Source of the DNA: a virus
Lineage: Duplodnaviria; Heunggongvirae; Uroviricota; Caudoviricetes
Virus record (IMG/VR): IMGVR_UViG_3300044719_000150
Length of the DNA stretch: 64,000 bases
Strand: one strand, 5' to 3'
Part shown: positions 15,553-24,293 of the stretch, piece after piece
Layout: each line of letters begins with the position of its first letter
How positions within the stretch are numbered: position 1 is the stretch's first letter
Notes under the pieces: model-generated
What the model was told of the DNA's origin: nothing
Databases searched by the model: none
The model's input: only the letters and a program-made list of their open reading frames with translations
Translations under genes and position numbers: made by a program

Positions 15553-15630
15553 CGCGGGATGGAGCAGCTCGGTCAGCTCGCTGGGCTCATAACCCAGAGG
15601 TCGAGGGTTCAAATCCCTCTCCCGCTACCA
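15553..15630 (+). tRNA. tRNA-fMet (initiator, anticodon CAT), CCA encoded
   Basis: Close match to bacterial initiator tRNA: three G-C pairs closing the anticodon stem (GGGCTCATAACCC), 1-72 mismatch, T-loop GGTTCAAATCC. Confidence 0.75.
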
Positions 15631-15759
15631 GGGCGAGTGCCACTGGCATTTAGCCCGAAGGATCTCTGGCAAGAGACCTGCCGACGCTCGTGAGCTTGGA
15701 ACTGGATAGCGAGCTAGTAAGTCCGGACGTAAGTGCCGGGCCGGTGTCCAAGCGTTAAT

Positions 15760-15830
15760 TCCCGATTGGTGTAGTGGCAGCACGCGACCGTCTGGTGGTC
15801 GTAGCCGGGGTTCGAATCCTTGATCGGGAG
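15760..15830 (+). tRNA. tRNA-Gln (CTG)
   Basis: Cloverleaf folded by hand; acceptor TCCCGAT/ATCGGGA; T-loop GGTTCGAATCC. Confidence 0.55.
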
Positions 15831-15948
15831 CGAGGTAGAGGCGAGCGCCTGCCAGCGCGGACCTCGGGGCAGGGAGCCGGGGTGGCAGTCCCGTCTCAGC
15901 CCTGGCGTGCACCTCATCCCCGCCTTACGGCGGGCAGCACGCCACCTT

Positions 15949-16024
15949 GGCGCGGTATCCCAACTGGCAGTAGGAGCCTGGCTCAGACCCAGGTAATGTG
16001 TGGGTTCGACTCCCACCCGCGTCA
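15949..16024 (+). tRNA. atypical tRNA, anticodon CAG (Leu codon) but class-I length
   Basis: Acceptor GGCGCGG/CCGCGTC, anticodon stem CCTGG/CCAGG with loop CTCAGAC, T-loop GGTTCGACTCC; no long variable arm. Confidence 0.4.
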
Positions 16025-16153
16025 CGCAGCAGGCAGATTGCGCTGCCGGGGCGGCGCCTCCTCGCGGGGGGTGCTGGAAGATCGCTCTAAAATAGCCGCT
16101 ATTCGGTGGAAGCGTCCGCGAGACCCCAGACCGCGTGTGGCTATACGCACCAT

Positions 16154-16236
16154 GCATCCGTGGTGGAATTTGGCAGACACGCCAGGTTGAGGGCCTGGTG
16201 CCTTCGGGTGTGCGGGTTCAAATCCCGCCGGGTGCA
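16154..16236 (+). tRNA. tRNA-Leu (GAG), class II
   Basis: Long variable arm TGCCTTCGGGTGT; T-loop GGTTCAAATCC; anticodon loop TTGAGGG. Confidence 0.65.
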
Positions 16237-16312
16237 CGACACGGCCATCGACACCACGAGAGCCATCACTCTCTCGCCGTGTTTTCTGTCGGATCGAGGA
16301 AAGGGGAACGCA

Positions 16313-16515
16313 TGGCACTGTTCGGTGGTAGCAAGGGCAACGAGGACGCGGGCAAGGAAGCCCGTAGGCGCGCCGACGAGCACAGGACGCGCTCCCAGGA
16401 GCGCCAGTGGCATCCCACTGACGGCCGGGAAGAGGCTGAGAGGGAGGATGAAGCCTTCAGGGAGGGCCGCAGGCGCCAGTGGGTGGACCCCGCCGACAGC
16501 ACGGACGACGACTGA
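16313..16515 (+). CDS. hypothetical highly charged small protein
   Basis: RBS GAGGAAAGGGG before the ATG; 67 aa, Arg/Glu/Asp-rich; sits between tRNAs. Confidence 0.45.
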
Positions 16516-16569
16516 AGCATCACCGGCGGCTAGCGAGTCTGCGAAACCCAATGTGATCCCGCCACTACC

Positions 16570-16644
16570 GCCCCCGTACGCCAACTGGCAGAGCGGCCAT
16601 CCTCAAAAGGTGGTGGATCTCGGTTCGACTCCGAGCGCGGGGCA
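16570..16644 (+). tRNA. atypical tRNA, anticodon CAA (Leu codon) but class-I length, with an extra nucleotide between the T-stem and acceptor
   Basis: Shares the D-loop CCAACTGGCAG with the 15949 tRNA; T-arm CTCGG-TTCGACT-CCGAG. Confidence 0.35.
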
Positions 16645-16695
16645 CTGGACGCCCATAGGAGTGCCGCGCCCCATGGCGTCACCGGCGTCCTGCAC

Positions 16696-16769
16696 GGCTC
16701 CGTACCTCAGCTGGTAGAGGGCCCGGCTCATAACCGGTGAAGTCGGTGGATCGAGACCACCCGGAGCCA
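16696..16769 (+). tRNA. tRNA-Met or Ile2 (CAT), elongator type
   Basis: Acceptor GGCTCCG/CGGAGCC; anticodon loop CTCATAA; non-canonical T-loop ATCGAGA. Confidence 0.55.
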
Positions 16770-16925
16770 CTGCGGCCATGTTCCTCACGTAAACCAATGC
16801 CTAGTCGTCGTAAACCGTGATACGCTAGCCGTGTCCATTGATCCACCGCAAGCCCAATGGTTGCACGACGCACCACCTGGCGGCCAGGTTGACTCCATAG
16901 TCCAATAGATGCGCGCCGCCAGTAC

Positions 16926-16999
16926 CGGCCTGTAGCTCAGCTTGGAAGAGCAGCGCCTTCACACGGCGCGTGTCAGGGGTTCAAATCCCTTCGGGCCGA
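16926..16999 (+). tRNA. tRNA-Val (CAC)
   Basis: Cloverleaf folded by hand; T-loop GGTTCAAATCC. Confidence 0.6.
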
Positions 17000-17003
17000 C
17001 GAG

Positions 17004-17077
17004 CGGAATGTGGCGCAGCTTGGCAGCGCACCTGGCTGGGGGTCAGGGGGTCGCCGGTTCGAATCCGGCCATTCCGA
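17004..17077 (+). tRNA. tRNA-Pro (GGG)
   Basis: Acceptor CGGAATG/CATTCCG; anticodon loop CTGGGGG. Confidence 0.6.
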
Positions 17078-17131
17078 CGAGGTGGTGTCCGTGCTTGATT
17101 CGTGCTCCATGGGAGAACCGGCACCGCCCAC

Positions 17132-17204
17132 CGCCCCGTAGCTCATAGGGTAGAGCGCTTCCTTGACACGGAAGAAGCGGAAGGTTCGAGTCCTTCCGGG
17201 GCGA
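17132..17204 (+). tRNA. tRNA-Val (GAC)
   Basis: Acceptor CGCCCCG/CGGGGCG; anticodon loop TTGACAC. Confidence 0.65.
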
Positions 17205-17205
17205 C

Positions 17206-17277
17206 GCGCCCGTAGCTCAGGGGAAGAGCGTTCGCCTCCTAAGCGAAGGGCCGAGGGTTCGACTCCCTCCGGGCGCA
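17206..17277 (+). tRNA. tRNA-Arg (CCT)
   Basis: Acceptor GCGCCCG/CGGGCGC; anticodon loop CTCCTAA. Confidence 0.65.
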
Positions 17278-17509
17278 CGGCGTTCCTGGCCAAACTGGGT
17301 TCGAAAGACCATCTTGCGGAACCGCTGGGAACGTGATACGTTAGGACCTGTTGGCAGCCAAGTGCGGAACTTCGCACAGAACAAAGTCGCTGCCAGTGCA
17401 CCACCGATAACTTCAAGGTTGAACTCTCGTTGTCTAAGCCCTTGGTTATCGGATAATCGGCGGTTTCAAGGTTGGAGATTCTTCTGCCAAGCCCTTGGCC
17501 GCCGAACAT

Positions 17510-17582
17510 AGGGGTATAGCTCAGCGGCCAGAGCAGCGCTCTCCAAAGGCGCGTGTCGTAGGTTCGAGTCCTACTACCCCTG
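17510..17582 (+). tRNA. tRNA-Trp (CCA)
   Basis: Perfect acceptor AGGGGTA/TACCCCT; anticodon loop CTCCAAA. Confidence 0.65.
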
Positions 17583-17584
17583 CG

Positions 17585-17656
17585 GTGGCCATGGCCGAGC
17601 GGCTTAGGCACTGGTTTGTGGAACCAGGCAGGTGGGTTCGACCCCCACTGGCCACA
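17585..17656 (+). tRNA. tRNA-His (GTG), with a G at -1
   Basis: Acceptor GTGGCCA/TGGCCAC; anticodon loop TTGTGGA; starts 2 nt after tRNA-Trp. Confidence 0.6.
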
Positions 17657-17667
17657 CAATTGAATAT

Positions 17668-17738
17668 GGCCCTGTAGCTCAGGGGATGAGCAGCGCTCTA
17701 CGGAAGCGCGGACGCAGGTTCGAATCCTGTCAGGGCCT
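17668..17738 (+). tRNA. tRNA-Arg (ACG)
   Basis: Acceptor GGCCCTG/CAGGGCC; anticodon loop CTACGGA. Confidence 0.65.
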
Positions 17739-17879
17739 CTAGCCGCCTATACGACGCGCGCTTAGTATGCGGTGACTGGGTTCACGGAGAGAGAACGAAG
17801 TGCTGTTACTGGTAAGACCAGGACGGCTCTCGGCCCGTGTATGTCGGTAGGGTGGGCAGGCCGACGTTAACTGAATGAT

Positions 17880-17964
17880 GCGCTGAATCCCGAGGCATAG
17901 GGTATGCGGTCCGCAAGATCGCGGGGAGAGAATCCCCTCGCAGGTTCGAATCCTGCTCAGTGCA
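17880..17964 (+). tRNA. tRNA-like element, 85 nt (class-II-like; anticodon uncertain)
   Basis: Acceptor GCGCTGA/TCAGTGC and T-arm GCAGG-TTCGAAT-CCTGC are canonical; the D and anticodon arms are irregular; preceded by the leader TTAACTGAATGA. Confidence 0.35.
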
Positions 17965-18091
17965 CGGCACCGCCCGTAGCTCAAAGCCCTCTTCGCGAGG
18001 AGGGGTAAACGCAAGAGCCCTTGGGGTCTGTTCGCGCAGGCATCCCGAGGAGATCCGGAAGTGACCGGCGGCGGTGACCTTAACTGAATGA

Positions 18092-18162
18092 GCCGGGATA
18101 CCTCAATGGGCAGAGGACTCCTCTACAGAGGGGGCGCGCTGGTTCGAACCCAGCTCCTGGCG
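18092..18162 (+). tRNA. tRNA-like element (anticodon possibly ACA; 3-nt variable loop)
   Basis: Acceptor GCCGGGA/TCCTGGC; T-arm GCTGG-TTCGAAC-CCAGC; also preceded by TTAACTGAATGA. Confidence 0.35.
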
Positions 18163-18423
18163 CGGCTGGTGGCCGCCGGAACCCTTACCCGGCGGGCGCG
18201 GAGGCCAACTTGGGTTGATCCCCACCAGAGCCGCTCAAGCGGCGGCTCGCGCTAACGCATAGCGGAGGCGGTAGGGCTCTCACCCGAGCAAGATCCGCGT
18301 ACTCGTAGTAGCGGGCCCAGCACTTTGTTCCCGTGGCCTTCGGGCGTGCGGGAGGAGCGGGAAGTCTGACGCCGTTGCAGGGGGTCGGACCAGGTCGGAT
18401 GACGCGGGTTAGGCCGACCACAT

Positions 18424-18550
18424 GCGGAGGTGCCAGAGAGCAGTGAATGGGTGGACCGGAAGGTGTGCACGCCGGATGGTCCAGCTGGACAGTCATGCGG
18501 ACGCGTACGTGTGACGCTGGTCCTCGCGGGTGCAAATCCCGCTCTCCGCT
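18424..18550 (+). ncRNA. 127-nt tRNA-like RNA: canonical acceptor and T-arm flanking a ~50-nt extra segment
   Basis: GCGGAGG...GCGGG-TGCAAAT-CCCGC-TCTCCGC; possibly an intron-containing tRNA, a degenerate tRNA or another ncRNA. Confidence 0.3.
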
Positions 18551-18604
18551 CGATCCGCCGATTGCAAGCGGCGGTGATGGCCGTGCGTTGCGCAGCGTAC
18601 GGAA

Positions 18605-18699
18605 TGGGATTGGGTGCGTTGGAGCACAGGGAAACGAGTCAAACCGGTCAACCGGGGCGATAGGAGTACCAGGACCAGGTTCGAATCCTGGAATCCCGC
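18605..18699 (+). ncRNA. 95-nt tRNA-like RNA
   Basis: Acceptor TGGGATT/AATCCCG; T-arm CCAGG-TTCGAAT-CCTGG; the interior does not fold canonically. Confidence 0.3.
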
Positions 18700-18979
18700 G
18701 ATCGGTGGCTATTGAAAAGCCGACAACCCGTCATGCAGCGCCACCGATGCTACAATGCATGAGTATCCCGCACGCATGGGGTGGTGCCCTTGCGGCGGGG
18801 TCCAGGTGAAAGCTCTGGCTAACGCCCCAGTGCCCGGCCACCCCCCCCGGCCGGGGATACGACATCACCTGGACAAGTCTGCCGGTCCGACTCACCGGCA
18901 GATCGGGAGCCATGTAGTCGGGTTGGGCATGGCAAGCCGGAGACGTGGGTTAGTCCGGCGCTACGCAAGGAGGAAGGCA

Positions 18980-19129
18980 ATGGAATCGGTCGCAGAGGCG
19001 CCCCTGGTGGACATCATGGTGGTGTCCAAGGTGCGTGTCGCGAGAGGCGTGCCGCTCGGCGAGCTGGCCGACCGCGCCGCCGAGGCGCGCGCGGAACGCT
19101 CGGGCGTCCGCTTCAATTCGTCGATCTAG
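18980..19129 (+). CDS. hypothetical small protein
   Basis: Very strong RBS AAGGAGGAAGG 5 nt before the ATG; 49 aa. Confidence 0.45.
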   Translation: MESVAEAPLVDIMVVSKVRVARGVPLGELADRAAEARAERSGVRFNSSI

Positions 19130-19202
19130 TCCGCCGCCTCGGGGTCGGGGAAGCGGGCGAACCGGCGGCCAGGGCGCTCGCGTAAGTCAAAATCGCAGCC
19201 GC

Positions 19203-19275
19203 CGCCGGTCAAGGCACTGTAGCTCAGTTGGAAGAGCGTCCGGTTGAAGCCCGGAAGCGCGGCCGTTCGAACCGG
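19203..19275 (+). tRNA. tRNA-Phe (GAA)
   Basis: Acceptor GGCACTG/CGGTGCC; D-arm TAGCTCAGTTGGAAGAGC; anticodon loop TTGAAGC. Confidence 0.7.
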
Positions 19276-19304
19276 TCCGGTGCCACGCGAAGGGAGGTGC
19301 AGCG

Positions 19305-19589
19305 ATGGATCATCAGCGTGTCGAGGTGCGCTTCGAGCAGGAGCGCTTCGGCCCGAAGGCCGACGTGTGCTGGGAGTGCTCGGACCCCGAGGACAGGGTG
19401 TGGGTGCCGGTGACGTTCTGCGCGAGTGCCTCCCGGACGATGCCGGGCTGGGGCGAGGCGGACATGGAGCTGGGCTTCTACACGGTGCCGAACGCGCCGA
19501 GCATGTGGGACGAGCCCGAGTATGACGCGCTGGAGCGCTGGGACCAGTACGATCCTGACGCTTACTGGAGAGGTCGCCTAGCGGCCTAG
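19305..19589 (+). CDS. hypothetical protein
   Basis: RBS GAAGGGAGG before the ATG; 94 aa; its 3' end overlaps the first ~23 nt of tRNA-Ser(GCT). Confidence 0.45.
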   Translation: MDHQRVEVRFEQERFGPKADVCWECSDPEDRVWVPVTFCASASRTMPGWGEADMELGFYTVPNAPSMWDEPEYDALERWDQYDPDAYWRGRLAA

Positions 19590-19655
19590 GGCGCGGTCCT
19601 GCTAAGACCGTGGGCCCCGAAAGGGGCCCCGTGGGTTCGAATCCCACCCTCTCCG
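19567..19655 (+). tRNA. tRNA-Ser (GCT), class II
   Basis: GGAGAGG acceptor; D-arm CGCCTAGCGGCCTAGGGCG; long variable arm; T-loop GGTTCGAATCC. Confidence 0.7.
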
Positions 19656-19705
19656 CTTAATTGACTGGACAGCGCAACGTGGATGAGATACGTTAGTTCT
19701 CATGA

Positions 19706-19787
19706 GGCAGGTTGCCCGAGCGGCCAAAGGGAGCGCGCTGTAAACGCGTCGCGTCATGCTACGAAGGTTCGAATCCTTCACCTGCCA
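19706..19787 (+). tRNA. tRNA-Tyr (GTA), class II
   Basis: Acceptor GGCAGGT/ACCTGCC; D-arm CCCGAGCGGCCAAAGGG; long variable arm. Confidence 0.65.
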
Positions 19788-19835
19788 CGCACCACAACTC
19801 AAGGAGGACAGTAGGGACGGCGACAAGGAGGACGA

Positions 19836-20076
19836 GATGAAGCTCTTCAAGGACCGCAGTCCGGTCCAGGGACGCAGGATCGGTTCCAGGCTCACCGGCG
19901 AGGACGCGCGTAACGCTCTCGCGGAGGCGAAGCACCGAGGCGACCAGAGAGCCATCAGCGGCCTCCAGTACATCGAACGCAACGGTGGCTACATCAGCAT
20001 CGAAGATGATGCCGCCATCCGGCAAGACGTCGCAGCCGCCAAGCAAGTCCTACGCGATCTCGGCTACAAGCTCTGA
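19836..20076 (+). CDS. hypothetical small protein
   Basis: RBS CAAGGAGGACGAG before the ATG; 80 aa. Confidence 0.45.
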
Positions 20077-20128
20077 GCTTGTGCATGCCAACAGAATGCT
20101 TTTTGACAACTCCAGAGTGACGCGATAC

Positions 20129-20199
20129 GCGAATGTAGCTCAATGGTAGAGCGCCACCTTGCCATGGTGGATACGCGGGTTCGATTCCCGTCATTCGCT
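20129..20199 (+). tRNA. tRNA-Gly (GCC)
   Basis: Acceptor GCGAATG/CATTCGC; anticodon loop TTGCCAT. Confidence 0.7.
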
Positions 20200-20290
20200 C
20201 TACGGCGACCATTGCATCAACGCTTTCCAGAAGCGGTGCGTCGCCGGGCGCCTTGGATGCTCGCAGAATCCAAACCCTTAGCGGCGCCGT

Positions 20291-20364
20291 GGCCCGGTAG
20301 AGTAGCGGCCTATCTCATTTCCCTCTCAAGGAAAAGACCACGGGTTCGAATCCCGTTCGGGCTA
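20291..20364 (+). tRNA. tRNA-Glu (CTC), irregular D-arm
   Basis: Anticodon stem-loop TTTCC-CTCTCAA-GGAAA; T-arm ACGGG-TTCGAAT-CCCGT. Confidence 0.45.
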
Positions 20365-20479
20365 CAATCCGGTGGCCAAGAAAAACACGCACGCCAGATA
20401 GGCTGCGCCACCGGGAAACATTCGACGGCTAACGGCGGTTCAATACCCAATCTAGGCACGCCGTCGATACTCGTTCATT

Positions 20480-20553
20480 CGTCCCATCGTCTAGCGGCCT
20501 AGGATCCCACCCTTTCAAGGTGCGAGGCACGGGTTCGAATCCCGTTGGGACGA
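20480..20553 (+). tRNA. tRNA-Glu (TTC)
   Basis: Acceptor CGTCCCA/TGGGACG; D-arm GTCTAGCGGCCTAGGAT; anticodon loop CTTTCAA. Confidence 0.6.
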
Positions 20554-20676
20554 CCAGGTCAGGCTCGCAGGGAGCCTGCGACGTGAGGGCCCTACGGCCG
20601 TAGGGTTTCCGCCGCGAGAAGCGCGCGTAAAAGCCTCAGACCGGAACCGCATGTAGCTTGCATGCGGACCTGTAAT

Positions 20677-20750
20677 GCAGGTGTGGTGTAATTGGCAGCA
20701 CGTCACGCTTCCAACGTGAAGGCCTGCGGGTTCAAGTCCCGTCACCTGCT
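20677..20750 (+). tRNA. tRNA-Gly (TCC)
   Basis: Acceptor GCAGGTG/CACCTGC; anticodon loop CTTCCAA. Confidence 0.65.
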
Positions 20751-20751
20751 C

Positions 20752-20824
20752 CGGGCTGTCGCCTAATGGTATGGCACTGCATTTGGGATGCAGCATAACG
20801 CAGGTTCGATTCCTGCCAGTCCGA
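20752..20824 (+). tRNA. tRNA-Pro (TGG)
   Basis: Acceptor CGGGCTG/CAGTCCG; anticodon loop TTTGGGA. Confidence 0.6.
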
Positions 20825-20835
20825 CTGCATGACAA

Positions 20836-20911
20836 CGGCGCGTGGCCAAACTTGGTAAGGCACCTCGTTCGGGACGAGGAAATTTTGCAGGTTCAAATCC
20901 TGTCGCGCCGA
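20836..20911 (+). tRNA. tRNA-Pro (CGG)
   Basis: Acceptor CGGCGCG/CGCGCCG; anticodon loop TTCGGGA. Confidence 0.6.
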
Positions 20912-20923
20912 CTTGTAAAATAT

Positions 20924-20995
20924 GCGCCCTTGGCCGAGTGGTTTAGGCACAGCCCTGCAAAGGCTGATACACCCGTTCGAACCGGGTAGGGCGCT
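20924..20995 (+). tRNA. tRNA-Cys (GCA)
   Basis: Perfect acceptor GCGCCCT/AGGGCGC; anticodon loop CTGCAAA. Confidence 0.65.
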
Positions 20996-21091
20996 CAAGG
21001 TGGCCAATGGTTGGTGCGCAAACCAATGACCGAACGCCACCGACCTCCGGCTAAGTTTCCTACGCAAGACCATGTCAGCTTCGCCGGACAT

Positions 21092-21165
21092 GCCCTCATT
21101 GCCTAGCGGCCTAAGGCGGCTCACTTGGTAGGTGAGACACGGGTGTTCGAATCACCCTGAGGGCT
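21092..21165 (+). tRNA. tRNA-Thr (GGT)
   Basis: Acceptor GCCCTCA/TGAGGGC; anticodon loop TTGGTAG. Confidence 0.65.
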
Positions 21166-21246
21166 CAATGGCGGCCACTTTGCGCACGTTGCACCATTTA
21201 CGTGGCGCCGCCAGACGTGTCGTACCGTTGATATACTGTTCGATGC

Positions 21247-21648
21247 ATGGAGAAGAAGTGTAACTGGTGCGGTGAGATAAAGCCGCTCAACAAGTTCCAT
21301 CGGCGTGGTCCGAATGGACGCCAGGCGGTTTGCATCCCATGCAAGCAGGAGTACGACAAGGCGAACTATCGCAAGAAGGCAGAGCATCACAAGGGGGTCG
21401 TGGCGGCACGAGTGCAAGAAGTGAAGCTCTGGGCTCGCACACTCAAGGACGGCCCATGCACTGATTGTGGTGGCCAGTTCCATCCTGAAGCTATGCAGTG
21501 GGATCACGTCTCCGGAAGTAAGCGCTGGGATGTGGGCGCTATGACGCACGCCGGTTACGCAAAAGAGACAATCCTGAAGGAAATCGCGAAGTGCGAGCTG
21601 GTCTGCGCGAACTGCCATGCAGTGCGAACGGCCAGTCGTCGCGAGTAA
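21247..21648 (+). CDS. HNH endonuclease
   Basis: CxxC...WDHV...N...CxxCH pattern (CNWCG, WDHVSG, LVCANCH); 133 aa; embedded in the tRNA array. Confidence 0.75.
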   Translation: MEKKCNWCGEIKPLNKFHRRGPNGRQAVCIPCKQEYDKANYRKKAEHHKGVVAARVQEVKLWARTLKDGPCTDCGGQFHPEAMQWDHVSGSKRWDVGAMTHAGYAKETILKEIAKCELVCANCHAVRTASRRE

Positions 21649-21657
21649 GGTAGTTTT

Positions 21658-21731
21658 GCCGGGCTAGCTCAATTGGCAGAGCGGCGCACTCGTAATGCGC
21701 AGGTTTCGGGGTTCAAATCCCCGGTCCGGCT
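21658..21731 (+). tRNA. tRNA-Thr (CGT)
   Basis: Acceptor GCCGGGC/GTCCGGC; anticodon loop CTCGTAA. Confidence 0.6.
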
Positions 21732-21889
21732 CCAGCAGTGGCCATTCACTCGGCTCCGCACCCAATGGACGCCCGCCACTGCGTAGATCCGGCAGCCATG
21801 TTCGACTCGGTGCCCAACGCCACCGCGCTGCCACAAACCTCGACAGCCATATAGATCACGTAGGACCAAAACATACTCGCTGTCGATAT

Positions 21890-21964
21890 GGGGGTGTAGC
21901 TCAGCCCGGTTAGAGCATTTCGCTGATAACGAAAAGGTCACAGGTTCAAATCCTGTCATCCCCA
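21890..21964 (+). tRNA. tRNA-Ile (GAT)
   Basis: Acceptor GGGGGTG/CATCCCC; anticodon loop CTGATAA. Confidence 0.65.
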
Positions 21965-21968
21965 CCTT

Positions 21969-22041
21969 GGGCCCGTAACTCAGTCGGAAGAGTACCGTCC
22001 TTTTAAGTCGGGAGTCGTGGGTTCGAGCCCCACCGGGCTCA
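21969..22041 (+). tRNA. tRNA-Lys (TTT)
   Basis: Anticodon loop CTTTTAA; T-loop GGTTCGAGCCC. Confidence 0.6.
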
Positions 22042-22045
22042 CTTT

Positions 22046-22119
22046 GTGCCGTTAACTCAATTGGTCAGAGTACCGTCCTCTTAAGTCGGGAGTTGGGGGT
22101 TCAAGTCCCTCACGGCACA
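22046..22119 (+). tRNA. tRNA-Lys (CTT)
   Basis: Perfect acceptor GTGCCGT/ACGGCAC; anticodon loop CTCTTAA. Confidence 0.65.
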
Positions 22120-22128
22120 CTACACTTC

Positions 22129-22201
22129 GGGGTCGTAGCTCAATTGGTAGAGCATCCGCTTCGCGAGCGGAAGGTTGAGTGTTCAAGTCACTTCGACTCC
22201 A
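22129..22201 (+). tRNA. tRNA-Ala (CGC)
   Basis: G3:U70 identity pair; anticodon loop TTCGCGA. Confidence 0.6.
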
Positions 22202-22243
22202 CTTAAGGCACCGGCGTGAAGCCATGGCTGCGTCCGGTGACCT

Positions 22244-22315
22244 GGGGCATACAGCCAGGGAGGCGGACCGGCCTTGCAAGCCGTGTCGTGGTCGGTTCGA
22301 TGCCGACATGCTCCA
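22244..22315 (+). tRNA. tRNA-Ala (TGC)
   Basis: Acceptor GGGGCAT/ATGCTCC with G3:U70; anticodon loop CTTGCAA. Confidence 0.55.
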
Positions 22316-22326
22316 CGTATACGTTA

Positions 22327-22398
22327 GGGCCCGTAGCTCAAAAGTAGAGCACCTGCATGGCACGCAGGAGGCTGGGATTGCGAAATTCCTCGGGTCCA
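22327..22398 (+). tRNA. tRNA-Ala (GGC)-like with a non-canonical T-arm (possible pseudogene)
   Basis: Acceptor GGGCCCG/CGGGTCC with G3:U70; anticodon stem-loop CCTGC-ATGGCAC-GCAGG; T-loop TGCGAAA mismatched. Confidence 0.4.
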
Positions 22399-22683
22399 CT
22401 ACCGCCGCGCGGTCGGCGGACAAGCCCGTTCGGAGCGTGGCCTCTGTGAAGGAACAAACCGTGGGATGCAGTGATTCCGAATAGCGGTCCCAGGTGCTTG
22501 ACCATCCGTACAGCCGCCTTGCGGGGCGGAGCCTGACCCGCCGCACACGGGTTGGGCTGATGGGTGTCCCGCAGGGGATCACCGTTCAGCGCACAGGGCG
22601 TCGGGCCCTGGTAAGCGGGTCCGGCCCCCTGCGGGCTCCACGAGTGAGTCGCCCGGCACTCTATAATCCCTACCGGCGAGCCT

Positions 22684-22770
22684 GGAGAATTGGCCGAGTG
22701 GACTATGGCGCCGTCTTGGAAAGGCGGTGGGTGCTTCGGTGCCCCACAGGTTCGAATCCTGTATTCTCCG
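22684..22770 (+). tRNA. tRNA-Ser (GGA), class II
   Basis: Perfect acceptor GGAGAAT/ATTCTCC; long variable arm; TATAAT hexamer 16 nt upstream (22663-22668). Confidence 0.7.
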
Positions 22771-23036
22771 CTGGGCGACCACCTCCAGTCCGATTTCCAT
22801 GTACCGCACGTCGCCCCACCTTTTAGCGGCTAGTGATGTGTCGATATCCAAAGCACGAACGCCGCCTTGTTTCACCCGGTAGCCATTCAGAGCTCGTGCA
22901 CCGCACCTCAACCGCTACCGGTATCATTGCCCTCGACGGCCAGCCATGATCCGATTCCCATACATGGCCCGCTGTCGATATCCTGCCGGTGGCCACGATG
23001 TGGGTCGTTTTCCATAGCATGCACGCCGCCGGTTTT

Positions 23037-23113
23037 GGGGATGTAGCTCAGTCTGGTCTAGAGCGCTCGCCTGTCACGCGAGAGGTTCGCGGGTTCAAAT
23101 CCCGTCATCCCCG
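23037..23113 (+). tRNA. tRNA-Asp (GTC)
   Basis: Perfect acceptor GGGGATG/CATCCCC; anticodon loop CTGTCAC. Confidence 0.7.
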
Positions 23114-23154
23114 CTAGTGCGGCAGTTGAGACGCATCGGCAAGCCGGGTCGCAC

Positions 23155-23225
23155 TACCCCGTAACTCAGCGGAAGAGGCCGCCAAGCGCAGGCGGAGGGC
23201 GCAGGTTCGAGTCCTGCCGGGGAGC
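23155..23225 (+). tRNA. tRNA-like, anticodon possibly GCG (Arg); A32/A33 in the loop
   Basis: Canonical T-arm GCAGG-TTCGAGT-CCTGC and D-arm; one acceptor mismatch; unusual anticodon loop AAGCGCA. Confidence 0.35.
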
Positions 23226-23251
23226 TGGCACAAGCGCAAGGAGCGCATGCA

Positions 23252-23479
23252 GTGGCAAAGGGAGAACGGGTTCTGAGTGTCACCCTCGCCGACTGCCGGG
23301 TGGATACGTTCCGCTCGGGCGGCAAGGGCGGCCAGAACCAGAACAAGCGCGAGACCGGCGTGCGGATCGTGCACGAGCCGTCCGGCGCGGTGGGCGAGTC
23401 CCGCGAGGAGCGTTCGCAGCTCCAGAACAAGCGGACGGCTTTCAAGCGCATGGCCGCTCATCCGCGTTTCAAGGTTTGA
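23252..23479 (+). CDS. GGQ-motif peptidyl-tRNA hydrolase domain protein (class-I release factor / ArfB-like), 75 aa
   Basis: GTG after AAGGAG; DTFRSGGKGGQNQNKRETGVRIVHEPSG...ERSQLQNKRTA matches the RF-1/ArfB catalytic GGQ domain; ends at a TGA followed in frame by a coding-like segment. Confidence 0.7.
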   Translation: MAKGERVLSVTLADCRVDTFRSGGKGGQNQNKRETGVRIVHEPSGAVGESREERSQLQNKRTAFKRMAAHPRFKV

Positions 23480-23641
23480 CTGAATCGGCAGCTCTACGGT
23501 CTGTCCGGTGATGGGAACCGTGGCTATGCCTGGAAGTTCGAGGGCGGCAAGTGGGTGCCGAACAGCACTCCGGGCACGCCGAAGGACATCAAGGTGGAGG
23601 TCAAGGTGAACGGCCGGTGGGTCGAGGTGCCTGCCGAGTAG
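23480..23641 (+). other. in-frame 53-codon coding-like extension downstream of the UGA of the GGQ gene (possible readthrough or recoding)
   Basis: Same frame as the GGQ CDS; high GC at third positions; no ATG or GTG start with an RBS near its beginning; ends at TAG 23639-23641. Confidence 0.35.
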
Positions 23642-23648
23642 CAGGCTA

Positions 23649-23721
23649 TGCTCCGTAGCTCAGTGGAAAGAGCAGCAGCTTCCGAGGCTGAAGGTCGCGG
23701 GTTCGAATCCCGCTGGGGCAA
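23649..23721 (+). tRNA. tRNA-Arg (CCG)
   Basis: Anticodon loop TTCCGAG; T-arm GCGGG-TTCGAAT-CCCGC. Confidence 0.55.
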
Positions 23722-23772
23722 CTGTGGCGTCCATATCAAGGACAGGATCCAGAGCAGTGCGACGCCACGTTT

Positions 23773-23863
23773 GGAAGGGTGGACCGAGTGGACTATGGCG
23801 CACGCCTCGAAAGCGTCGCGGGTCGCGCGAGCGGCCTCGTGGGTTCGAATCCCACCCCTTCCG
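23773..23863 (+). tRNA. tRNA-Ser (CGA), class II
   Basis: Perfect acceptor GGAAGGG/CCCTTCC; D-arm GGACCGAGTGGACTATGGC; long variable arm. Confidence 0.65.
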
Positions 23864-24020
23864 CTGCTGGTGGCCAGCGTACGATCCATCACCAATGATC
23901 CAGCGCCACCGGCCCCTTTTCGATAGCCAGCATGCATGCGACCTCCAGACTTCATGCGCTATCGAATTCTTGTGGCGGCCAGACCTTCGCACGTCCTCCA
24001 AGACGAGCGCGCCGCCCTTT

Positions 24021-24106
24021 GGAGAGTTGCCCGAGTGGTAATGGGTGCCGCCTTGAAAGCGGATGACGGGCGAAAGCCCGCGCGGGTTCGAATCCTGCAC
24101 TCTCCG
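24021..24106 (+). tRNA. tRNA-Ser (TGA), class II
   Basis: Perfect acceptor GGAGAGT/ACTCTCC; D-arm GCCCGAGTGGTAATGGGT; anticodon loop CTTGAAA. Confidence 0.65.
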
Positions 24107-24202
24107 CTGGCGTCCATGCCTTGATCCGCAAGCCCAAAGTACGCCCGACGCCACCAGCGCCTATCAGTTCTTCGGATGACCAAGTCCCAGACGGCGCTGC
24201 GT

Positions 24203-24276
24203 TCCTCCGTCGCCCAATAGGTAGGGCACCGGATTGTTAATCCGCCCAGGTGCAGGTTCGAATCCTGCCGGAGGAG
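24203..24276 (+). tRNA. tRNA-Asn (GTT)
   Basis: Perfect acceptor TCCTCCG/CGGAGGA; anticodon loop TTGTTAA. Confidence 0.6.
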
Positions 24277-24293
24277 CTTGCCGGGAGGTGTCC

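Follow-up and report, generated by a model that had tools for sequence, protein, structure and literature searches.

A recurrent in-frame UGA at conserved tryptophan codons of a phage GGQ-domain gene, probably read through as tryptophan

Why does a gene of the release-factor family carry a stop codon in the middle of one conserved reading frame, and what becomes of the protein it encodes? The question is raised by a 64,000-nt stretch of DNA from a virus of the class Caudoviricetes (IMG/VR record IMGVR_UViG_3300044719_000150), the whole of which we call the window. From a GTG at 23252, a reading frame runs for 75 codons to an in-frame TGA at 23477-23479, after which 53 sense codons follow in the same frame before a TAG at 23639-23641. 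The original prediction, made from the letters alone, had described a 75-aa open reading frame (ORF) with a 53-codon same-frame extension past its TGA, placed between tRNA genes, and our reading reproduced all of this, coordinates included. We propose that the UGA, at the position of Trp76, is probably read through as Trp by near-cognate tRNA-Trp in a context-dependent manner, giving a full-length protein. Readthrough or recoding was among the options first put forward, and it is supported because the stop recurs across the family, its context is convergent, and the sequence downstream is under purifying selection in sister lineages; the evidence is strong for the family and indirect for this phage. 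The parts of the gene are as follows.

23238..23243, + strand: Shine-Dalgarno-like AAGGAG, 8 nt 5' of the GTG start (direct sequence reading)
23252..23476, + strand: codons 1-75, the GGQ (RF-1) domain, comprising the beta-sheet, helix 1, and the first turns of helix 2
23477..23479, + strand: codon 76, TGA at the near-invariant Trp of the family (alignment column, five assemblies)
23474..23482, + strand: stop context GTT TGA CTG (U at -1, CUG at +1)
23480..23638, + strand: codons 77-129, the C-terminal part of the family, aligning with 26-30 intact relatives and made up of the rest of helix 2, the subfamily insert GDGNRGYAWKFEGG, and the beta-hairpin IKVEVKVNGRWVE
23639..23641, + strand: TAG terminator of the full-length frame

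The position of the start is backed by a divergent relative (L085), which has ATG at the codon equivalent to 23252. The extension has GC fractions of 0.57, 0.47, and 0.82 at the first, second, and third codon positions, a coding-type profile that bears out the strong third-position bias first noted, and a scan of the 64-kb window found the TGA at 23477-23479 to be the sole in-frame TGA with such a profile on both sides. The extension was also said to lack a start of its own, and the nearest canonical in-frame start past the TGA (ATG, GTG, or TTG) is indeed a GTG at 23555, 26 codons on. The surroundings of the gene showed neither a promoter-like nor a terminator-like site. TTGACT could have formed a promoter, but this was ruled out, as no -10 element and no promoter-like site goes with it.

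A sequencing or assembly error at a TGG codon would be the simplest origin for such a stop, and TGA is only one base away from the codon of the consensus residue. However, the identical TGA is present in five separate contigs from at least five samples and two data sources, which already refutes this explanation and reduces its probability to almost nothing. The window is 100% identical over 6,228 nt, TGA included, to contig Ga0466962_0000012 (119,921 bp) of Joint Genome Institute (JGI) data set 3300061719. The same TGA occurs in a sister phage (JGI 3300044706, 93.5% identical overall), in the Logan assemblies SRR23978766 and SRR35358768, and in a 1.3-kb contig of JGI 3300044684 (L085), whose copy of the gene is 16% divergent in its 5' half, chiefly through synonymous changes; the divergence of this last contig also argues against an error. 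Because five independent assemblies carry the TGA, the sequencing error raised as a possibility in the original prediction is excluded. In L085 (1083-1335), the first 190 nt of the gene differ from the window at 30 positions, mostly synonymous, and the next 63 nt, TGA included, are identical to it. This adjacency of divergent and identical segments suggests a recombination breakpoint inside the gene.

The 75-aa part matches the Pfam RF-1 domain (PF00472) over residues 9-69 (E 1.3e-18, 67.4 bits, cut-off 35) and holds the catalytic GGQ motif, SGGKGGQNQNK at residues 22-32, of which G25, G26, and Q27 are invariant in a 49-sequence alignment (A1). It also matches PHROG 3122 (E 2.4e-35) at profile positions 21-91 of 136. 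A full-length relative with 83% identity spans positions 20-129 of this profile, and members of the family are typically 110-130 aa long (Bxz1 gp200 and similar). The extension searched alone gave no match to PHROG 3122. At the DNA level, the gene is 74-82% identical to genes of the Mycobacterium phages Bxz1, Nanosmite, prophiT49-2, and WXIN, whose proteins of 97-120 aa read ...KFQ[VL]W[LV]KRQ...KTEVR..G.W..., with Trp at the position of the window's TGA. These four and 30 closer relatives read ...KF[QK][VL]W[LV][KN]RQ... across that position. A protein search returned ~1,900 relatives, 30 of them full length (122-133 aa, 66-85% identical) and with the insert GDGNRGYAWKFEGG. In a 314-sequence alignment, the column at the TGA holds W 305 times, TGA 6 times, and Y 3 times, and in alignment A1, the Trp (W75) is invariant.

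A hidden Markov model (HMM) built from the C-termini of 26 intact relatives gave the window's extension 99.7 bits; the intact relatives themselves scored 68.7-103.4 bits when each was left out in turn. Because the extension falls within their range, it is by this measure an ordinary C-terminus of the family, without sign of decay. The fused versions without the stop that were to be looked for do exist, as full-length homologues carry Trp where the window has TGA, and the C-termini of these proteins align with the extension. What had been taken for a minimal hydrolase of 75 aa is, judged by homology, a ~129-aa member of PHROG 3122 (23252-23641) interrupted at Trp76. The window gene and the annotated members of this phage family are the same over both halves, but the annotated members are uninterrupted, with TGG at codon 76, and the window gene belongs to a subfamily with an insert of ~17 aa. 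An AlphaFold2 model of an 83%-identical relative (P0002; mean predicted local distance difference test score 79.5) has a three-stranded sheet, a helix at 55-67, a Trp-bearing helix at 70-82, a low-confidence insert, and a terminal beta-hairpin.

The window's stop has counterparts elsewhere in the family. We translated family genes through stops in all fetched loci and scanned 97 unique genes. Internal stops were TGA only and lay at only two positions, both Trp-tolerant. At the first site, the invariant Trp, TGA occurs in the window clade, L033, L099, the L110 clade, L363, and L391; at the second, the A[F/W]RRM position, it occurs in L036/L098, and 21 homologues have Trp there. Later lineages came from a search of the 75-aa fragment against 1.84 billion representatives of 50%-identity clusters for proteins ending exactly at the Trp sites. 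The contigs of such proteins had TGA every time, at the first site in L413, L414-417, L418, and L419 and at the second in L420 and L421. This gives a total of 13 lineages (10 at the first site and 3 at the second), with 13 TGA, 0 TAG, and 0 TAA. A single step from TGG can also give TAG, and set against TAG alone, the all-TGA outcome has a binomial probability of 1.2e-4. In the window gene, TGG to TGA accounts for 4 of the 42 possible single-base nonsense changes. The nearest relative found has TGG, or TTC at the second site, in 8 of the 13 lineages, and the TGG-bearing P0205 and P0233 are nested in the neighbourhood of the TGA lineages L413, L419, and L363.

As a control, the coding-profile scan was run on 189 kb of non-redundant, high-GC flanking phage DNA. 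It flagged no more than two further in-frame TGAs: an adjacent same-frame gene accounts for the first, and the second (L032) is ambiguous. Gene callers had annotated the N-terminal half alone in most of the interrupted cases examined. Two further searches added no lineages: an exact-codon DNA pattern (CAGCTNCAGAACAAG-N45-TGA) in IMG/VR, which was too strict, found only the sister phage and random matches, and a protein-seeded genome scan gave mostly cellular RF1/RF2, with neither a close relative nor a host assignment among the matches listed.

The sequence on either side of the stop also converges. At the first site, 8 of 10 TGA lineages have T at -1 and the other 2 have A (preceding codons GTT, CTT, ACT, GTT, CTT, ACT, ACT, and CTT; CTA and GTA), whereas only 12 of 85 unique TGG genes have T there. 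In the high-GC subset, T stands at -1 in 7/7 TGA lineages vs. 0/40 TGG genes (p = 1.6e-8). Of the 10 first-site lineages, 9 continue with CTG as the +1 codon and the tenth with CTA, compared with CTG in 12 of 85 TGG genes (p = 2e-6); at the second site, the +1 codon is AGG in 3/3 TGA lineages vs. 9/96 (p = 0.0014). Close pairs differ likewise: the nearest TGG relative (L006) reads GTG TGG CTC where the window reads GTT TGA CTG, and a TGG sister (L422) that is 95% identical to L413 reads TCC TGG CTG against CTT TGA CTG. The combination T-TGA-C is found at no other TGA stop among the 73 ORF-level genes of the window, whose genuine TGA stops favour T at +4. No stimulatory RNA structure or one like a selenocysteine insertion sequence (SECIS) was found in the 96 nt round the stop in five lineages (z-scores -1.45 to +1.15). 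Selenocysteine insertion is not supported, as there is no significant downstream structure and homologues have Trp rather than Cys. Taken together, these comparisons of assemblies and relatives show that the TGA is real and inherited, replaces a near-invariant Trp, and recurs always as TGA in a similar context.

Selection on the codons past the stop was measurable in two lineages. Over the 60 codons past their shared TGA, L036 and L098 show 24 synonymous and 6 non-synonymous differences, with a synonymous rate (dS) of 1.14, a non-synonymous rate (dN) of 0.044, and a ratio of the two (omega) of 0.04 (neutrality probability 5e-11). Past the TGA shared by L183 and L182, omega is 0.12 over 44 codons (p = 0.003). 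At the level of codon substitution, these ratios show purifying selection on the part past the stop in sister lineages.

Among the stop codons, it is UGA that tRNA-Trp misreads. Mass spectrometry in Escherichia coli found mainly Trp at read-through TGA, with rates strongly dependent on context (PMC11126739). As expected of functional readthrough, one homologous protein lies in the same frame on both sides of the stop, the stop is maintained (five assemblies) and recurrent (13 lineages), and it sits in a specific context, U/A-UGA-CUG or UGA-AGG, without downstream structure. We infer that the decoder is tRNA-Trp and that the same holds for the window's own lineage. Ribosomes would start at the GTG at 23252 and translate 75 codons to GUU-UGA-CUG, where most would probably terminate through RF2 and leave a 75-aa, GGQ-only fragment. 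A context-dependent fraction would decode the UGA with near-cognate Trp-tRNA(CCA), which both the host and the phage copy at 17510 would supply, and so put back the ancestral residue. These ribosomes would go 53 codons further to the TAG, yielding a 129-aa protein that by homology would be a codon-independent peptidyl-tRNA hydrolase acting on ribosomes. The UGA would then serve as an expression throttle, with output set by the balance of tRNA-Trp and RF2. Because decoding by tRNA-Trp at a useful rate would regenerate the wild-type protein, the change from TGG to TGA is best viewed as quasi-synonymous and expression-lowering, tolerated or favoured in a particular context.

The tRNA-Trp(CCA) of the phage folds into a normal cloverleaf, in which the anticodon stem has 5 bp, U31-G39 among them, and C11-G24 is present; it is kept in the sister phage, which also carries the TGA. 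Over-expressed normal tRNA-Trp increases UGA readthrough (PMC13092985), and for this reason the phage's own tRNA-Trp is a plausible contributor. It lies with the following tRNA genes in an island that encloses the GGQ gene.

15553..24277, + strand: tRNA island enclosing the GGQ gene, with 39 ARAGORN calls plus tRNA-Ala(GGC)
17510..17583, + strand: tRNA-Trp(CCA), candidate near-cognate UGA decoder (ARAGORN and Rfam)
17880-17965, + strand: tRNA-Cys(GCA), an odd call of 86 nt whose variable arm is long and which the Rfam tRNA model misses
18092-18163, + strand: tRNA-Cys(ACA), an odd call with A34
22327-22398, + strand: tRNA-Ala(GGC), Rfam 49.8 bits, missed by ARAGORN, with an unusual T-arm
23155-23225: tRNA-Arg(GCG), upstream neighbour of the GGQ gene
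23649-23722: tRNA-Arg(CCG), downstream neighbour of the GGQ gene

Several observations weigh against readthrough, and some of them fit a recent truncation or incipient pseudogene, in which translation ends at the TGA, yielding the 75-aa GGQ fragment alone or nothing of use, and the extension is an undecayed remnant. The two haplotypes of the window's own lineage differ at 3 nt, all in the extension and none in the 225-nt N-terminal part; one is synonymous and two are non-synonymous (G108D and V126M, at variable positions), but neighbouring spacers are only 0-1% divergent, and the comparison hence has no test power. In the low-GC (39-41%) lineages L391 (IMGVR_UViG_3300048574_000038) and L418 (Logan SRR30224794), a second stop follows 8-10 codons past the TGA and the C-terminal domain is gone, with a terminator-like hairpin then following in L391; a GGQ-only form may exist there, or the gene may be decaying. 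Because these two lack the C-terminal domain after the TGA, the same mutation can also lead to true truncation. Defective family members of the frameshift type exist as well: ~10 other 50%-identity representatives look frameshifted or truncated at the protein level (those that look frameshifted or internally deleted include P0286, P0344, P0361, P0283, P0238, and P0305), being either true pseudogenes or the result of faulty assembly. Since the last six lineages were chosen for ending at Trp sites, the statistic on position is biased, although those on codon identity and context are not, and it is best judged from the unbiased 97-gene scan. The preference for U at -1 has no explanation, and it runs counter to an E. 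coli reporter library in which T-rich upstream sequence was associated with less readthrough (PMC11126739). Finally, the phage tRNA-Trp has no known suppressor feature, neither of the Hirsh type nor the 4-bp anticodon stem of the readthrough-type tRNA-Trp (PMC13092985). Even so, we consider truncation unlikely for the window gene. Its extension scores as well as those of intact homologues, the stop would cut helix 2 of the modelled fold, and no stop was found at any non-Trp codon in the 97 scanned genes. The window also has the -1 U and +1 CUG of other TGA lineages where its nearest TGG relative differs at both flanking synonymous positions, and omega is 0.04 and 0.12 past the shared TGAs of two other lineages.

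That selection could also be explained if the gene were split, with ribosomes stopping at the UGA and restarting just downstream to make two polypeptides. An ATG does lie 3 codons past the TGA in the L110 lineage and in all three second-site lineages, and gene callers called downstream ORFs in the lineages with this ATG; both lineages where downstream selection was measurable are among these four. The second-site sequence reads TGA AGG CGT ATG, or TGA AGG AGA ATG with a purine-rich, Shine-Dalgarno-like stretch, but this AGG is 1-3 nt from the ATG, which is too close, and the second-site stop falls within core helix 1. At the first site, the nearest in-frame ATG, GTG, or TTG comes 26 codons on in the window and 38 and 53 codons on in L414 and L419, respectively, past most or all of the conserved region, and ATG or GTG stands at +1 in 0 of 10 lineages, even though high-GC TGG relatives have GTG there in 10/40 and ATG in 3/40. 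Reinitiation also leaves unexplained why the stop always replaces Trp and is always TGA, and we regard it as very unlikely. Less probable still is efficient decoding of the TGA by a UCA tRNA, a tRNA-Cys with inosine at position 34 (I34), or a code in which UGA means Trp. The phage has ~41 tRNA genes, the odd tRNA-Cys(ACA) at 18092-18163 among them, and our view was limited to 64 kb of a ~120-kb genome. However, ARAGORN and Rfam found no UCA anticodon among 41 tRNAs in that 64 kb, the extra Rfam hit being tRNA-Ala(GGC), and the anticodon stem of the tRNA-Trp is a normal 5 bp rather than the 4-bp readthrough type. TGA is the main genuine stop of the window, ending 45 of 73 ORF-level genes, and it ends the family gene itself in four other TGA lineages (L033, L099, L110, and L036). 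Nor is there a second in-frame TGA with a coding profile in the window, as genome-wide reassignment of UGA would produce. The sister phage keeps the TGA without either odd tRNA-Cys call and without the 17877-18080 segment, and tRNA-Cys(ACA) as an I34 decoder is accordingly not required. The suppressor-dependent extension entertained in the original prediction is not supported by the tRNAs or the stop usage of the window.

Readthrough of a UGA by tRNA-Trp has a precedent in phages, and in-frame UGA has one in release-factor genes. The A1 protein of the RNA phage Qbeta arises at a leaky UGA read by tRNA-Trp, which adds an extra domain after a complete coat protein. In the window gene too, a phage UGA would be met by a near-cognate tRNA-Trp without the help of a dedicated suppressor, and the two products would share their N-terminus, but here the UGA replaces a conserved internal Trp within one fold, the genome is DNA, and the stop has arisen repeatedly from TGG. 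The gene for RF2, prfB, is autoregulated through an in-frame UGA with a +1 frameshift at CUU UGA C. Like prfB, the window gene belongs to the release-factor family and has a UGA early in its frame, in the weak context U-UGA-C; three lineages (L033, L413, and L419) go as far as CTT TGA C. Output would be expected to depend on RF2 in both genes. The comparison with prfB drawn in the original prediction holds for the in-frame UGA but not for a change of frame. In the window family, downstream coding is in frame 0, the TGA falls on a Trp codon, there is no conserved Shine-Dalgarno-like stimulator 3 nt upstream, and the P-site codons vary (GTT, ACT, CTA, GCT). A prfB-type +1 frameshift does not fit, with the conserved C-terminus in frame 0 and no consistent Shine-Dalgarno sequence or slippery codon. 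The likeness could be taken further, with the UGA as a selected sensor in which full-length synthesis needs failure of RF2 termination or a supply of phage tRNA-Trp, evolved convergently at least ten times. We find this doubtful. It would be a speculative case of prfB-like feedback or timing via readthrough, using an undescribed bacterial motif (U-UGA-CUG / UGA-AGG), and it is similarly speculative that output would go up when RF2 is limiting or phage tRNAs accumulate, by the logic of prfB.

Other interrupted genes provide a second point of comparison for the proposed readthrough. Nonsense-interrupted bacterial genes, termed "pseudo-pseudogenes," can still give full-length protein (PMC9122581). 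The stops in that work and in the E. coli study (PMC11126739) are sporadic or engineered, but here they fall on the Trp codons of one family, in at least 13 lineages, with a context of their own that is at odds with the upstream rule from E. coli. A short readthrough motif in eukaryotes and viruses, UGA-CUA(G), needs no downstream structure (PMC4207609). The window family is alike in having UGA followed by CU(G/A), but the motif acts on eukaryotic ribosomes with eRF1, and the -1 U preference is extra here. To our knowledge, no bacterial equivalent of UGA-CUA(G) has been described. Our literature searches found no report of an in-frame UGA in these genes and no experimental test of the family's function.

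What the full-length protein does can be approached through its fold. The GGQ domain had been assigned to class-I release factors or ArfB; the RF-1 domain was confirmed, nearer to domain 3 of RF1/RF2 and PrfH, but the link to ArfB did not hold. Foldseek and a PDB profile search gave matches only to domain 3 of RF1/RF2, PrfH, and C12orf65, and at E <= 1e-3, the PDB profile hits include no ArfB chain. All NCBIfam equivalog scores fell below their cut-offs (prfB 68 vs. 370, prfA 62 vs. 423, prfH 56 vs. 167), and ArfB was the weakest match at 26.7 bits vs. 100. The readthrough product is 129 aa, aligns to domain 3 only, and has none of the codon-reading domains 2/4 (PxT or SPF) of class-I RF1/RF2. 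It shares with ArfB/ICT1, PrfH, and C12orf65/mtRF-R the form of a small GGQ module from domain 3 without codon-reading domains, but the modelled C-terminus is a helix plus a beta-hairpin with a conserved Trp, unlike the basic helical tail with which ArfB fills the empty mRNA channel. From these likenesses, we infer that the family may carry out codon-independent peptidyl-tRNA hydrolysis on ribosomes, possibly tied to the biology of tRNA arrays. Such genes have been noted in or near tRNA arrays in mycobacteria and their phages, as in the window (PMC5966550). In prophiT49-2 (L001 1539-3193), the family gene adjoins an RtcB-like RNA ligase, recalling PrfH-RtcB, and in L421 (1023-1851), it adjoins a PTH2 peptidyl-tRNA hydrolase; tblastn found RtcB to be absent from the window.

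The surroundings of the gene vary between relatives. Compared with the sister phage, the spacers at 22399-22683 and 20366-20479 differ at 98 of 285 and 21 of 114 positions, and most neighbouring spacers are identical; this patchy divergence looks like mosaic replacement inside the tRNA island. A homologue of tRNA-Ala(GGC) was also called in L085. Ten ORFs of 120-1029 aa that flank the tRNA island, within 11704-32703, had no Pfam match above threshold, and 25 kb of the window gave no megablast match to 50,697 phage records. The phages described so far are no more than distant relatives of this one.

If the proposed reading is true, these genes would represent natural, recurrent UGA-as-Trp readthrough in DNA phages of high-GC bacteria, within a gene of the termination family. 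What sets them apart is the recurrence, the restriction to Trp codons of a release-factor-like gene, and the short convergent context, which offers U-UGA-CUG and UGA-AGG as short candidate contexts for readthrough in bacteria. They also serve as a warning for annotation, as an ORF of 62-75 aa labelled "RF-1 domain" in a phage genome or a metagenome is probably one half of a full-length gene. More broadly, the interrupted genes would offer a way to learn what this family, a companion of phage tRNA arrays, does and how sensitive it is to dosage.

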